Below are positions 1 to 43,079 of a stretch of 51,582 nt of DNA, one piece after another. The stretch is from Elsinoe ampelina (lineage: Eukaryota). The stretch covers positions 283,437 through 335,018 of the forward strand of contig ML992514.1 of assembly GCA_010093995.1 (NCBI GenBank), in the 5' to 3' direction. Made by a program: the position numbers and the translations under genes. Position 1 is the first letter of the stretch. The number at the start of each line of letters is the position of its first letter. Under the pieces are notes generated by a model, which did not search any database, had not been told where the DNA came from, and worked only from the letters and a program-made list of their open reading frames with translations.

Positions 1-82
1 AAGTATTTTCTTTCTCGTCTGATCATGGTACCTATGTATATCAGCTGACCTTTGACAAAGTGGTGTTGGGACTGCAGCAGAT

Positions 83-2712
83 ATGAAGAAGCAGGTTGGC
101 TCATTGCTCTTCGACAAGCTCAACGTCTTTCAAATATTTGGCGCAAACACTGGAGTGGGTAAGACGGTCGCAAGCATAGCCCTCAGCAGACATCTCCATG
201 CGAAGGAGGGAGCCCTTTTGTACCTGAAGCCTGTACAGACTGGATCCGGCGACTCTTTCGACGCCAGGTATGTTTTCACTATCGGTACCTCGGTGACAAT
301 GACTCACCCGATATAGACATGTCAAACGTCATATGTGGGATGCTAGGCAAAAGACCTTGTTCTCGTACGGGTATCCTGTGAGCCCTCATCTTGCAGCAAG
401 ATATGGTTCATCGGTGAGAATGCTTGTCAGTGGCGAGAAGTGATGCTGATGGCTGCAGAAAGCCTGTGACGACGACACCATCCTGCAGGCCATCCACAAG
501 GAGCTCTGCGCCGAAGCGAAGCAACGGACCGACTGGGTGCTGATCGAAACCGCCGGGGGTGTTCTCTCGCCTGCTCCATCAGGCTCTCTCCAGGCGGACC
601 TGTACAGACCGCTGCGCCTTCCCGTACTCTTGGTCGGCGACAGTCGACTGGGTGGCATCGGATCCACCATCTCGGCTTGGGAGTCATTGCGTATCAGAGG
701 CTTCGACGTGGATGGGCTGATACTTTTCAAAGATGAAATCTACGAGAACAGCGACTATCTGATAGACCACTTCCGCCGACAGGATCATAGTATGTCGGTC
801 GCAGTGCTCGATCCCCCACCCCCACAATGCTCAGACGATACGCTTGACCAGTTCAACATGAGACGTTACTATGACAAGCAGACAAAGTCGGAATCTTTGG
901 GAACGTTCAAATCGGACATTCACCGTAAATTGGAACAGAGGAGGGAAAAGCTCAATTCGCTATCTGAACGCGCGCATCAGAGCATCTGGCATCCATTCCT
1001 ACAGCACACGGAGAGAAATCCCGAAAATATCCTGGCAATCGACTCGGCCTATGGCGACCATTTCCAAGCCGTCGTACCATCCAAGGACTTGGGTCCGGTT
1101 GGCACATCCATCCTGAAACCAGCATTTGATGGCTCAGCATCGTGGTGGACGCAAGGCCTGGGTCATGGAAACCCTGAGCTCGCACTGACGGCTGCCTACG
1201 CGGCAGGCAGATATGGTCATGTCATGTTTGCCAACGCCGCACACGAACCTGCTGTCGCATTAGCGGAAACCATGCTCACTCGTAATAACACCATGGGTCA
1301 GACGAATGCAAGGAACAAAAAGCAGACACGAGCCTTTTACAGCGACAATGGAAGCACTGCCATGGAAGTTGCGGTCAAGATGGGACTGAAAGCTGCAGCC
1401 AAGCGATATGGTTGGGGGCCAGAGGATCGAATAGAGATTGTTGGCTTGAAAGACAGTTATCATGGAGACACAATCGGGGCAATGGACTGCTCCGAAGGCA
1501 ACATCTACAACGAAAAAGTGGAATGGTACTCGGGCCGAGGTCACTGGCTTGATTATCCCCGAGTGGCGATGAAAAAAGGTAAATGGGTAGTATCACCTCC
1601 TGCTGGCACTGAAGACATCTATGGACCACCCCAAGAGTTTCAAGAGCTGCAAGACGTTTTCAATATCTCCGATCGACGCGAGACGACGAAGAAATACCGG
1701 GAGGTGATACTGAAAATGCTCAATCACCTGGTTCGTCAAGGACATAAGCTGGGTGCTCTCATCATGGAACCCGTGATACTCGGCGCCGGAGGAATGAATC
1801 TTGTGTTTGTCAATCTTGTCATGATAGCATGTGCAAAGCTAACAATTTTGCAGAGATCCCGTCTTTCAGTACGCCTTGTACAAGGCAGCTGTGGAGGTAC
1901 GGCAGCAAAAGACTCCACTCGAAGAATCAACACTCGAGACGATTAGTGCGGAAGAGGACGAAGAGCTCGAGCAGAACGGACTCGAGCTCGACGGGCGAGA
2001 TTGGAACGGCATGCCGATCATTACAGATGAGGTGTTCACCGGTATCTACAGGCTTGGTCATTTCAGATCATCCAACATGATTGGAATAGTACCCGACATC
2101 AGCGTACATGCCAAGTTGTTGACAGGCGGCGTAGTCCCTTTGGCAGTGACACTGGCCTCGGAGTCCATCTACTCGGCATTCCTGAGTAATGACAAGTCAG
2201 ACGCGCTCTTACATGGCCATAGCTACACGGCTCATGCCATTGGGTGTGAAGTGGCGCTGAAGGCCTTGAATGACTACCGCACATTCGACGAGGATGTAGC
2301 TGAGGGCAAAGCAGGCACCAAAGTGGGTCGGTGGACGCCTTACAAAAGAGATTGGAAAGCTGAAGGGCGGGAGTTCAACGGAAGATCAGAGAGGTTACGA
2401 TTCTACAACTCCCGAGTCTGGAGTTTGTGGTCTCGTGGGTTTGTCACCGAGTTGTCACACCGAGACGATATCGAAGGAGTCTTTGCCCTCGGCTCTGTCC
2501 TTGCCATTGAGTTGAAAGACCCGGAAGGGGGAGGATATGCGTCCAAGGCAAGCATCGGCATCAGGGACAAACTACTTGAGGGTATACCAGGGGTCAACCA
2601 GGCGGTCCACTCGAGAGTGCTGGGCAACGTGCTCTATTTCATGGCCAGTCTGACGACGACTCCCGAGACCATCAGTGCCGTGCAGGCACAGATTGAGAAA
2701 GCCTTGGGGTAG
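83..2712 (+). CDS. BIO3-BIO1: Bifunctional dethiobiotin synthetase / DAPA aminotransferase (BioD-BioA fusion); exons 83-267, 317-413, 459-1804, 1854-2712
   Basis: P-loop GANTGVGKT, YLKPVQTG, spliced PVSPHLAA and ETAGGV (BioD). SWWTQGLGH, DNGSTAMEVA, SYHGDT, DEVFTG, PLP-lysine VHAKLLTGG and HGHSYTA (class III aminotransferase). Three GT-AG introns restore the frame. Confidence 0.95.
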
Positions 2713-39285: not shown

Positions 39286-41520
39286 TCACGAAACCCCCAA
39301 ATTCCCAATCTCCCCTGTTTCCTCCTTCCTGTCGTTGCTGAGGGTGTAGCTCGCTTTCCAACGCATCTTGACTCCGCTTCCTTTACCGCGGGGTACGCCT
39401 TGGAGGCGGATGGATTGGGTGATGCCGTCTCGCTGGTGGGGGGAGAGGGTGCGGGAGGATTGGGGTTCGAGGTGGAGGGTGAATCCCTTTTTGTTGCTGT
39501 CAGCATTTACATGTGGAGGCCAGAGGGGAAAGGGAAGATAGGAGGAAAAAGACGAACCTTTGTCACTGCTAGTTGAAAGGTTAGGTCTGCTATTGGTAGG
39601 CTCGTGGCGTTGCTGATTCGGCTTTCGATTTGGATCCAGTCGTCTGCGCCTTGGGGTCGGGAGACGCGGAAGATGGTTTGGATGGAGCCGTTGGTGACTG
39701 TTATTTGATGAGGTTGGTCTTGTGGAAGGGCGGAGGTGAAGGTCCACTCGTCGTCTGCTGGTGCTGCGGCGGATTGGCCGTTACCAAGATTGAGTAGGGA
39801 TGATGCAGGTTGGGATGTTGGCGGTGGGTGTGTTGATTGTTGGAACTGGAAGGGAGAGGCAGTCCGTGAATTCGAGGAGGAGAGAGATGCGAATGGATCT
39901 GAAGGGGCTGCTGAGGGTTTTGCGAAGAGGTTGGTGTTTGGCTGTGGTGTGGCAGTCTTCGGAGGAGTCGAGACCGCACCGAGTCCGCCAAATGGGTCGT
40001 AGTTGGCTTTTGGTGGTTGGTTGATTTGTGGAGGTTGCGAAGAAGGTGCTGCTGGCTGAGAAGGACCGGAAAGGTCAAGCAGACCATTACCAGACGAGCC
40101 CAGTGAGATGTTGCCGCCCTGACCAAAAGCAGAATCACCGCCTATCGAAAGACCGAGGAGATCATCCTCGAGCGCATTGCCCTTCTTCTGCGGTGCAGCT
40201 GGCTGTGATGAGCTTGCTTCGTTCGACTCTGCTGGCTGCTCCTCTTCCGGTCCACCGAAATCAATCAGAGAAAGCTCGTTATCGGGTCCTTTCTTCACGC
40301 CCACACCGCTAATACCTAGCGTCCCCTTGGGTATCTTGTCTGCCGCCTCTCTGTCACCCTTCTTGACCAGCCGGTAGCGCTCGATGGTGCGATGTATGCT
40401 GTCATTGATTTCCAACAACTTCGCTACCGCTTCGTGATCATCCGACTCTTCCTCACACATCTTCTGGATCTTGGGATGTGCGCTTGCCAACGCGTTCGCG
40501 AGCTCCTCGAAAACGTCACCCTCATTTATTGTTTCACCAGGCTTAAGCCCTTGTAGCATTTCCTCGAGTATTCGTGCCTTTTGCTGTACTTTGCCGACCT
40601 CTTCTGCAGCCTTCGCTCGATAATCGGTCTTGTTACGTTGGTCGTAGCCGGCCATGACCTTCATGAGTTTGTTCGCCTCTTGTAAATCCCGAGGGGTTCC
40701 TCTTCGAATGAGCTCCTGTAGTTTGGCAGAGTGGTGTGCTTTCTCCTCTTCTTCCATCTCCTCTGCCGATTTGAGGTTCTGCCACATGTCAGTAATCTGA
40801 CAGGTATCACAACGTCAAATCGTACGTCACTTGGGTTCAGGACCGCTGCATCTTCCCGCCGAACTTCTGGAAAAACATAGCCCTTGTAGCTCAGCAATCT
40901 ATGCATGTCCCTAATGAATCCTAGATCTTCCTTGTACTTGGATGTTTGGCATATCGTTGATCGCCATTCTTCTATGAGCTCAAGGATCCTATTCATGGTT
41001 CGCGTCGCTCGTATCGGAGGTCGTTCAGGGAAGCGCCGTACAAGCTCGTTCAGGAACTCCTTCGTGCTGATCTGCAGATGGAATGGGTAACCACAGTTCT
41101 TGACGCAGATGTCGAGTAGCTATCCATGCTTAGTATGAGGTCCGCTGTACGTGCATGTAGAAGACTGACTGCAAGTGCCAGCAACGAGACATTTTGGTTG
41201 CGGTGGTTGATGTAGTTGACAATTGTGATTGCGGCTTCCCGTGGGCTGTGGGTCAATCAGTTGTATGTACAGTGATTCTCACATCGAAGGACATACGCAT
41301 TGCCTTTCTTGGAATTGATCAAGTCTGCAATTTCCAGGCAGAGAGCCAGATTGGGCTCGAAGTTCTGAGGATCGCAAGCATTTTCTGTTGAGGGTCAATC
41401 AGACAGTCCACCCGAAGACCAAAGTACCGTACGGATGTATCGCTGGAGCGGTGACTGTGCTGGCTCACCAGGGAAGGAGAACCTGTCCCTGGCGGCGTAC
41501 CTCGCCGATGCTGCCTCCAC
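39286..41520 (-). CDS. GGA: GGA clathrin adaptor (VHS-GAT-GAE); exons 41520-41433, 41384-41297, 41245-41170, 41119-40826, 40778-39558, 39486-39286; apparent GTG start
   Basis: Spliced VHS domain LQRYIQNACDPQNFEPNLALCLEIADLINSKKGNAPREAA...CVKNCGYPFHLQISTKEFLNELV. GAT domain SAKLQELIRRGTPRDLQEANKLMK, clathrin box SLIDF, and GAE ear ending GEIGNLGVS. The last acceptor is AAG. Confidence 0.92.
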
Positions 41521-41876
41521 GGTGGGCAACTGTTACGGGGGTGCTTGTGGTAAGCGGAGCGATTGCACGATTGGGCCCAAGGCGGAAATACAGGCTGAAG
41601 ATAGCGTATGAAATCGTGAGAGTCGTTAGATGCGAGAGTGAGTCCTCAATCGCAAGTTGATGACAAGGTACACGCAGCTCAGCGTAGCCGTATACTCGAC
41701 CTCCGGGAGGTGCTATGCCAAGACTGGCGCTTTGCCCATTCGAGAATGACGTCGCCGTCTTCTGCTGCATAAAAAGTTATGGCAGAATTGCCCCTCGCCT
41801 TTTCGACTGTCAGTACGAAAGTAGACTTTCACTTAATCTGAATCTTCCTGGTAGATTGCAACACCTCTTGTCCAAC

Positions 41877-43079
41877 ATGGTCCGCCACAAGAAAGACTTC
41901 ACAGGCAAAGGTAAACGTCATGGCCCAGCAGACCGCACGACGAGACCTATGCCACCTCCGCGAGGTGCTTCCGAGGATGGATCAGATCAGGAGACTTCAC
42001 AAAGATACAGAAAACCATCATTCAAAGCTGCCTGCTGGGATCTGAATCACTGCGACTATAAGCGATGCTCAGGCAAGCGACTCATACGCCTCGGCTTGAT
42101 GAGGTCGCTGGGGATGAATCAGAAGCATCCGGGTGTCGTCATAAGCCCGAACGCGAAGATACTGGTATCGAGAGCAGATCTGCCAATCCTGGAGCAATTC
42201 GGAGCCGCAGTCGTCGAGGCAAGCTGGAACAGAATCAACGAAATCAACTTCTCGCGCATAGGCGGGAAGAACGAACGATTACTGCCCTACCTGATTGCGG
42301 CAAATCCCACGAACTATGGTAGACCGTGGCGGCTGAACTGTGTCGAAGCTCTAGCAGCCGGATTCCTCATATGTGGTCACCGCGACTGGGCAGAAGAAGT
42401 CCTCAGCACTTTCTCGTACGGCCAGGCATTCTTGGATATCAACGAGGAGGTCTTTGAGTGGTATGAGAAGTGCGCGGACGAGAAGGAGGTCAAGGAAGCT
42501 GAGGAACGATGGTTGAGAAAGATACAGGACGAGTACGAAGGGGCAAAGGAGAGCAAAGAAGCTGGCGGGACGGGATGGGGTGGAGGCAACATGAACAGAA
42601 AGAGAGGTCTCGTGGAGGTCGGTGATGGAGAGGGCGAAGAGTCGGACGACAACGAGTGCGTCAAGCTGAACGCTGGCTCGAATGGGGACGATCAGGATGA
42701 GGACGACGAGGAAGACGACGTCGAAGAAGAAGACCACGATCCATACGGTCTACCGCCCGAGGACTCTGATGACGAGGAGGAGATGGCAGAGCTGCGGCGC
42801 CGTGTACTGGCATCAAAGCCTTTCTCGAATCCACAAGTCGAAGAGAAACAAGCGCCAACATCCGTGAAGAGCCCTGAGCCGGTGGTCAAGCATGACTCCG
42901 ATGCTGAGTCAGGATCGGATATTGGCGACGATGACGACGAGTTCGACAATATCATGAACGCTCAGCCCGTTACAGATCGTACAGGAATCACTGCGAAACA
43001 GCGTCAGAAGCAACAGGACCTATTATCGGCCACATTCTCCAGGGCTGTACTCTCGGCACCGAGTAAACCGCTTTCATAG
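41877..43079 (+). CDS. TSR3: 18S rRNA aminocarboxypropyltransferase
   Basis: MVRHKKD start, WDLNHCDYKRCSGKRL, ERLLPYLIAANPTNYGRPWRLNCVEALAA and an acidic C-terminal tail. Confidence 0.95.
   Translation: MVRHKKDFTGKGKRHGPADRTTRPMPPPRGASEDGSDQETSQRYRKPSFKAACWDLNHCDYKRCSGKRLIRLGLMRSLGMNQKHPGVVISPNAKILVSRADLPILEQFGAAVVEASWNRINEINFSRIGGKNERLLPYLIAANPTNYGRPWRLNCVEALAAGFLICGHRDWAEEVLSTFSYGQAFLDINEEVFEWYEKCADEKEVKEAEERWLRKIQDEYEGAKESKEAGGTGWGGGNMNRKRGLVEVGDGEGEESDDNECVKLNAGSNGDDQDEDDEEDDVEEEDHDPYGLPPEDSDDEEEMAELRRRVLASKPFSNPQVEEKQAPTSVKSPEPVVKHDSDAESGSDIGDDDDEFDNIMNAQPVTDRTGITAKQRQKQQDLLSATFSRAVLSAPSKPLS

Follow-up and report, generated by a model that had tools for sequence, protein, structure and literature searches.

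The minus strand of a 51,582-nucleotide (nt) stretch of the genome of Elsinoe ampelina, a fungus of grapevine (contig ML992514.1, positions 283,437 to 335,018; this whole stretch is the window, and all positions below are counted from its first letter) carries a gene for a GGA clathrin adaptor, the translation of which very probably starts at a GUG codon, 41520-41518. As judged from the sequence, this codon would be the only route to the full-length protein. Four things were observed directly: the sequence around the codon, the splicing of the transcripts, the fact that the dominant transcripts have no upstream exon, and the pattern at the same codon in related fungi. The product of exon 5 of the gene (P0001) was 100% identical to a deposited "VHS domain-containing protein [Elsinoe ampelina]" (P0002), and all four GGA domains exceeded their Pfam cut-offs in P0002. 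The VHS domain (PF00790) scored 150.9 bits against a cut-off of 29.8 and covered profile positions 3-141 of 141; it lies at residues 38-181 in P0002 and, counted from the GUG, at residues 21-164. The GAT domain (PF03127) scored 82.5 bits (cut-off 31), the gamma-adaptin ear (PF02883; residues 564-662 of P0002) scored 64.7 bits (cut-off 27.6), and N-GAT, the Arf-binding extension of GAT (PF18308), was barely over its cut-off of 25.6 with 25.7 bits. Because of these domains the gene is identified as the E. ampelina GGA adaptor, which is predicted to bind Arf-GTP, clathrin and cargo. The same architecture of VHS, N-GAT, GAT and gamma-ear is found in GGA adaptors of yeast and filamentous fungi, and MoGga1 of Magnaporthe oryzae is reportedly one such filamentous-fungal adaptor.

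The start region and its transcripts

On the minus strand, an in-frame TAA (41533-41535) is followed by CAG, TTG, CCC, ACC and then the GTG at 41518-41520, after which GAG GCA GCA TCG GCG AGG TAC leads on into the VHS domain; translated from the stop codon, the segment reads *QLPTVEAASARYAARDRFSFPGEPAQSPLQRYI. The sequence bears out a first-pass annotation of the window, which had read exon 1 in this way, had placed the GTG in a CCCACC-GTG-G context, and had noted the TAA five codons upstream. The Kozak-like CCCACC (41521-41526) puts an A at -3, and G is found at +4 (41517). The sole further near-cognate codon between the TAA and the GTG is the in-frame TTG at -9 (41527-41529), and its context is poor, with C at -3. 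A scan for ATG codons agreed with the annotation that the minus strand holds none from 41520 to 41737; the nearest, at 41739-41737, opens a reading frame of just 8 codons. Another ATG on the same strand, at 41770, opens a 101-codon open reading frame (ORF) at 41465-41770 that overlaps the GGA start in another frame, and the RNA contigs stop short of this ATG.

Eleven sequencing runs (X1-X11) held at least a third of the sampled words of 40600-42000, with shares of 0.36-1.00. Contigs from four of them were compared with 40900-42100, namely X1, which is DNA, and X3, X5 and X4, which come from three different studies. The latter three were chosen as presumed RNA, none being recorded as RNA. Their contigs skip 41120-41169, 41246-41296 and 41385-41432, each of which is GT..AG on the minus strand and each of which X1 keeps, and X3, X5 and X4 are therefore derived from cDNA. 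No differing letter, insertion or deletion was found in the four contigs across 40900-42100, the GTG included, and thus the GTG is present in the transcripts. RNA editing that would create an AUG was rejected, since the RNA and DNA contigs are letter-identical. Upstream of 41433, the contigs follow the genome without a break to 41649 (X3), 41640 (X5) and 41636 (X4), and their first letters (record position 1) lie at those positions, without loose ends or added joints. The only joints over the compared stretch are the three introns 3' of exon 1. The first-pass annotation had considered an upstream ATG exon spliced onto a candidate acceptor, TAACAG; this acceptor was unused in all three assemblies, which run colinear with the genome across it. 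The 5' leader up to the limit of the RNA contigs (41521-41649) is 129 nt long and free of AUG in every frame, and the X3 contig, at 2211 nt, fits such a leader together with 1968 nt of coding sequence and a short 3' untranslated region. That the three contig ends fall within 14 nt of each other is a weak hint of the mRNA 5' end. The interval 41650-41815 is without RNA contig cover, which says nothing of transcriptional silence there.

The spliced mRNA model was built from the three RNA-confirmed introns and two introns (40825-40779 and 39557-39487) inferred from the identity with P0002. Exon 1 contributes codons 1-29 and one base (41433-41520) and ends at 41433, as the first-pass annotation had proposed and as the skipping of intron 1 (41385-41432, 48 nt) in the contigs of three studies confirmed. 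Exon 2 (41297-41384), intron 2 (41246-41296, 51 nt), exon 3 (41170-41245) and intron 3 (41120-41169, 50 nt) follow and were all taken from the RNA contigs. The 3' boundary of exon 4 (40826-41119) depends on the P0002 identity, as do intron 4 (40779-40825, 47 nt) and intron 5 (39487-39557, 71 nt). Exon 5 (39558-40778) encodes the GAT domain, the hinge and the beginning of the ear, according to the sequence, P0002 and Pfam, and the coding part of exon 6 (39286-39486; sequence and P0002) ends with a TGA at 39288-39286. The reading frame from the GUG comprises 655 open codons, and 654 of 654 residues from E2 onward were identical to P0002. The first AUG of the mRNA lies in exon 2 (41381-41379). 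It is one of three, at +91, +172 and +229; none of them is in frame, each has A at -3, and they open ORFs of 20, 49 and 30 codons, respectively. The first in-frame AUG is reached only at +375 in exon 4 (40996-40994), where it forms codon 126 and reads MNRILE. A start there would cost 105 of the 144 VHS residues, in line with the expectation of the first-pass annotation that most of the VHS domain would be removed.

Codon 1 in related fungi

The 120 best hits from each of three protein searches, which overlap, amounted to 305 distinct homologues, and these were classed by the motif around their first eight codons. Codon 1 was M in 140 of the 305 (MEAASARY, MEAASARM and variants), and the MEAASAR start that the first-pass annotation had given for relatives was thereby found at the very codon that is GTG in E. 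ampelina. In another 133 models the protein begins at the Met in the codon-8 place (MAARDRF...) and codon 1 is hidden, while the motif is absent from 21 models that are truncated or otherwise mis-modelled. A visible residue other than M was present in the remaining 11. One of these is the artificial Q of P0002, which stems from an invented junction, and the other ten are five V and five L and nothing else, the residues of GTG, CTG and TTG codons. V was found in three Aureobasidium rows, Delphinella and Saccharata, and L in Sphaceloma, Myriangium, Rhizodiscina and two Penicillium. It is to these protein models that read through the codon (10 of 10 with V or L) that unbiased support from codon 1 is limited. 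Over exon 1, the E. ampelina protein differs from that of Sphaceloma by 1 residue and from that of Myriangium by 3 of 28.

A tree was inferred with FastTree from 150 rows, which are the 151 homologues with a visible codon 1 less P0090, which has no anchor motif; the 154 rows with a hidden codon were excluded. The rows were cut from the EPNLAL motif onward, by which the N-terminal columns that hold the trait were left out, and E. ampelina was scored as V from its DNA. The 11 non-M rows required 4 changes on this tree. Seven of them, namely the three Aureobasidium, Delphinella, Sphaceloma, E. ampelina and Myriangium, formed one clade with a support of 97, the two Penicillium grouped together with a support of 100, and Rhizodiscina and Saccharata each stood alone; these FastTree support values should be taken cautiously. 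Codon 8 was Y in all seven rows of the non-M clade, which leaves no nearby Met to rescue the start. On this tree, the ancestor of Dothideales and Myriangiales apparently underwent a single loss of the AUG, after which a near-cognate codon would have been retained with switching between V and L.

The codon itself was read in DNA by scanning metagenome contigs with a pattern of BTG followed by back-translated EAASAR-[Y/M]-A-[A/T]-RDR. The scan yielded 23 loci, among which 17 cores are distinct. Every locus was a real GGA first exon that runs into ...PLQR[Y/A/F]I, and all but L017 had an intron at the matching position after it. Among the distinct cores, codon 1 was CTG in 11, GTG in 6 and TTG in none; at codon 8, four of the GTG cores had TAY and the remaining thirteen cores had ATG. 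An A occupied position -3 in 16 of the 17 distinct cores and a G in one. An in-frame stop upstream with no in-frame ATG in between was found in 15 of the 16 distinct cores with sufficient upstream sequence, the exception being L008 with an in-frame ATG at -138. In an alignment of 18 sequences (A1), the leaders were unalignable and conservation set in with a CCGYCAYC-like block followed by the G/C-TG codon; codon periodicity continued past the part fixed by the search pattern. That the EAASAR codons of the 23 loci vary only synonymously was rejected as evidence of coding constraint, since that pattern imposes it. The scan shows that near-cognate GGA loci are numerous and diverse; it does not show how common they are. 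Together, the V or L in all ten visible non-Met relatives and the GTG or CTG in the DNA of relatives support the non-AUG initiation proposed in the first-pass annotation.

Some of the loci could be placed by blastx. L006 and L007 were 95% identical to Aureobasidium proteins and have GTG at codon 1 and TAC at codon 8. L010 and L022 were 85-91% identical to a group of P0039, Glonium and Lepidopterella, whose models start at Met-8 (MATRDRF). The L019 exon was 98% identical to Penicillium citrinum and has CTG followed by ATG at codon 8. Of the best 120 homologues of L019, 115 start at Met-8, the named ones all being Eurotiales or relatives (Penicillium, Aspergillus, Penicilliopsis), and two extend upstream to read ...TLEAASARM. 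The same arrangement of a CTG in a strong context, six EAASAR codons and then ATG recurs in the Penicillium-type loci L001, L003, L011, L019/L021 and L023 (proteins P0122-P0241). This suggests that, in the Penicillium-type GGA, an isoform started at the CUG exceeds the annotated protein by seven residues. Two further loci showed features of their own. L017, which is genomic because Tsr3 lies upstream of it, has a GTG start and lacks the first three introns of E. ampelina, and its ORF (1-1176, minus strand of the locus) is unbroken from codon 1 to ...NPSD. In L010 and L015, in-frame ATGs at -84 and -57 upstream of the CTG both run into an in-frame stop at -36, and they would, if transcribed, be short upstream ORFs that end just 5' of the near-cognate start.

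Alternative starts and a proposed mechanism

The deposited model of the gene begins at an AUG. P0002 starts with MTFTFACEVFLVADHVGQE, followed by AASARY, which implies an ATG at 41921, a first exon at 41865-41921 on the minus strand, and an intron of 350 nt (41864-41515) that takes the AG of the GAG codon as its acceptor. This joint was absent from every RNA contig compared (X3, X5, X4), and 41515-41649, which is part of the model intron, was contiguous exon in all three. The exon itself has no support in the RNA contigs and falls within the Tsr3 coding sequence of the opposite strand. We regard it as a device of the predictor to reach an AUG. The first-pass annotation had expected standard predictors to truncate this gene. 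That they mishandle it proved right, and truncation turned out to be one of at least four kinds of error made by AUG-bound predictors: the model of E. australis is truncated and starts MNRILE, an exon was invented in E. ampelina, the start region of the E. fawcettii model is in the wrong frame, and a "partial" flag is carried by the models of Aureobasidium, Saccharata and Rhizodiscina.

It is nevertheless conceivable, if quite improbable, that a minor or condition-specific transcript supplies an AUG, from a start further upstream, from ATG 41921 joined to 41514, or from ATG 41739 or 41770 joined to TAACAG. On paper, ATG 41770 or 41739 with a GT donor can be joined in frame to the AG at 41531, contigs lose rare variants, and several models of relatives bear AUG-started extensions. 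However, the contigs of three studies and the position of ATG 41921, as described above, speak against such a transcript, the extensions in the relatives have no sequence in common, and the non-AUG state is held across the whole clade. The candidate donors near ATG 41739 and 41770 are presumably also a poor match, being far from what we take to be the fungal consensus. Slightly lower still is the probability that we assign to initiation at the UUG (41529-41527) that precedes the GUG in frame by three codons, whether alone or alongside the GUG. This codon is near-cognate, in frame and 3' of the TAA, but apart from its poor context the matching codon is not near-cognate in the aligned relatives, where conservation starts at the GUG/CUG, and the BTG scan found no TTG at the initiator position among the 17 distinct loci. 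Moreover, UUG is not listed among the efficient near-cognate codons in the part of PMC5666671 drawn on here.

Very improbable, and a step further down, is the possibility that exons 1-3 are untranslated, so that the protein begins at codon 126 without most of the VHS domain, or that the gene is decaying. AUG 40996 is the first in-frame AUG, and the E. australis model starts there. However, three out-of-frame AUGs with A at -3 precede it, the 125 upstream codons are open and closely match those of relatives, such as Sphaceloma and Myriangium in exon 1, and the VHS domain that they help to encode fits nearly the whole profile. The arrangement also persists across the clade, which is incompatible with decay. 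Finally, a sequencing or assembly error that conceals a true ATG has a negligible probability, with nothing found in its favour: the RNA contigs of all three studies and the DNA contig agree with the window at 41520, the relatives have V or L at codon 1, and the Aureobasidium-like loci have GTG.

Several points weigh against a start at the GUG and were taken into account. Four models of the non-AUG clade (P0005, P0006, P0010 and P0064) carry AUG-started upstream extensions, although these are mutually dissimilar and look like predictor fixes. The RNA evidence consists of assembled contigs, from which rare isoforms are dropped and by which 5' ends cannot be mapped, and the X1 DNA contig is possibly the window's own source and hence not independent. 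The metagenome scan could return only CTG, GTG or TTG followed by the EAASAR peptide with synonymous change, and the frequency of other codons is not informed by it. A leader without AUG is by itself unremarkable, being expected by chance with P = 0.30 for 129 nt and P = 0.09 for 216 nt in shuffles; AUG depletion was dropped as an argument for this reason, and what exceeds chance is the comparative pattern. Folding of the 18-sequence alignment revealed no conserved enhancer of non-AUG initiation; downstream structures of this sort are frequent at such starts but not obligatory. A GC-rich hairpin does lie downstream of the GUG in E. ampelina (41453-41496, minus strand, GGA codons 9-23), where the 98-nt fold has -39.5 kcal/mol and z = -2.2, with 5 of 200 shuffles equally stable. 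The 18-sequence consensus reached just -2.86 kcal/mol with 9 pairs, and an enhancer hairpin was dropped from the mechanism as unconserved. Lastly, we infer rather than observe that ribosomes initiate at the GUG, that Met is the first residue, and how efficient the step is.

Given a start at the GUG, which we still hold to be very probable, translation may proceed as follows. The GGA mRNA would begin approximately 130 nt upstream of codon 1, and a cap-dependent scanning 43S complex would traverse the AUG-free leader to the GUG in its strong context (A at -3, G at +4). Initiator Met-tRNA would read the GUG and give a 655-residue protein with a Met-Glu-Ala-Ala-Ser-Ala-Arg N-terminus, MEAASARY..., as in the species with AUG. 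Initiation would be less efficient than at an AUG, and ribosomes leaking past the GUG would be caught by the three out-of-frame AUGs, each with A at -3. Because leaky ribosomes would be captured out of frame in this manner, little or no codon-126 product is expected, and the GUG would be the only route to full-length GGA. The low efficiency might itself have been selected, setting the dosage of GGA or tying this dosage to start-codon stringency. Independent changes from AUG to CUG or GUG would have occurred in other lineages as well, among them Penicillium, which also has an AUG at codon 8. A wider reading, for and against which we see the case as evenly balanced, is that the GGA start of Pezizomycotina acts as a toggle. 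On four occasions or more, GUG or CUG would have taken the place of the ancestral AUG, with the Kozak block and EAASAR kept; Dothideales and Myriangiales would have had a near-cognate codon as sole start since the origin of the clade; Penicillium, and probably Aspergillus, would make a CUG isoform beside the one from AUG-8; and dosage or isoform ratio would follow stringency (eIF1/eIF5, stress).

The Tsr3 neighbour, known systems and significance

The divergent neighbour of the GGA gene is a Tsr3-type ribosome biogenesis gene on the plus strand (41877-43079; PF04034, 165.5 bits; PF04068, 35.8 bits), and its ATG at 41877 lies 357 nt from the GGA GUG. The Tsr3-side contigs of X3 and X4 both start at 41816, 61 nt 5' of the Tsr3 ATG; the loose end of X3 at this position is Illumina adapter, so that this point marks the end of a fragment and perhaps the 5' end of Tsr3. 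At 12 of the 23 metagenome loci (L001, L003, L006, L007, L009, L011, L013 and L017-L021), Tsr3 likewise stands head to head with GGA and starts 230-433 nt upstream of codon 1. Seventeen of the loci extend 900 nt or more upstream; they include all 12, and the five that lack Tsr3 there are L002, L008, L010, L014 and L022. The pair is kept from Eurotiales-like to Dothideomycetes-like loci. As the divergent Tsr3 ATG is so near, there is little space for an upstream coding exon of GGA, and the short shared promoter region argues against a hidden one in these lineages too.

Non-AUG initiation itself is well known, in fungi as well, and the GGA case is new within that kind. Literature searches on non-AUG or near-cognate initiation with GGA, VHS, fungi, Aspergillus and Neurospora found no paper linking GGA with non-AUG initiation. 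According to the part of PMC5666671 used here, CUG and GUG rank as the most efficient of the near-cognate codons, the residue placed at such starts is generally Met, delivered by the initiator tRNA, and context weighs more for them than for AUG. The same source describes a close parallel, EIF4G2/DAP5/NAT1 of vertebrates, in which DAP5/eIF4G2 is made solely from GUG. Both are housekeeping proteins with a conserved GUG in good context as the only full-length start. In contrast to GGA, DAP5 is an unrelated protein of another kingdom, and its start is experimentally proven, whereas that of GGA is deduced. The GGA codon, unlike that of DAP5, is AUG in most related fungi, so that the switch can be traced on a tree.

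Another parallel is cpc-1 of Neurospora crassa, for which conserved near-cognate starts are described in the portion of Ivanov et al. 2017 (PMC5487733) on which we rely. There, as for GGA, non-AUG initiation in Pezizomycotina was deduced from conserved in-frame coding sequence upstream of, or without, an AUG, and for cpc-1 it was then tested in extracts. The near-cognate codons of cpc-1, in contrast, add N-terminal extensions to an AUG-started protein, whereas the GGA GUG would be a sole start. A term search of the main text of PMC5487733 found no mention of GGA or VHS. Fungal aminoacyl-tRNA synthetases have dual AUG/near-cognate starts with repeated substitution of one for the other, according to the corresponding part of Wallace et al. 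2020 (PMC7049704). The toggling of the codon is similar in GGA, and the Penicillium-type CTG followed by ATG at codon 8 resembles such a dual start. The two starts of the synthetases, however, give mitochondrial and cytosolic isoforms, whereas the EAASAR piece of GGA, with 7 residues, is too short for a targeting signal, and the clade of Elsinoe and Aureobasidium is without a second start.

What makes the GGA gene notable is a near-cognate codon as the sole start of a core trafficking gene, clade-wide, at a position that toggles in Pezizomycotina between AUG, GUG and CUG. Should the CUG be in use, more than 100 Aspergillus and Penicillium models may miss the first seven residues of one isoform, and if the toggle holds, the 115 of the best 120 Eurotiales models with a Met-8 start would be seven codons short for one isoform. 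Genes that rely solely on a non-AUG start are few. A clade-wide example in GGA, which includes the culturable, yeast-like Aureobasidium, would be a natural system for the cost, benefit and regulation of near-cognate initiation, and the presence of AUG, GUG and CUG at one codon in near-identical contexts makes a comparison possible. The model predicts that the abundance of GGA in these fungi would be coupled to start-codon stringency.

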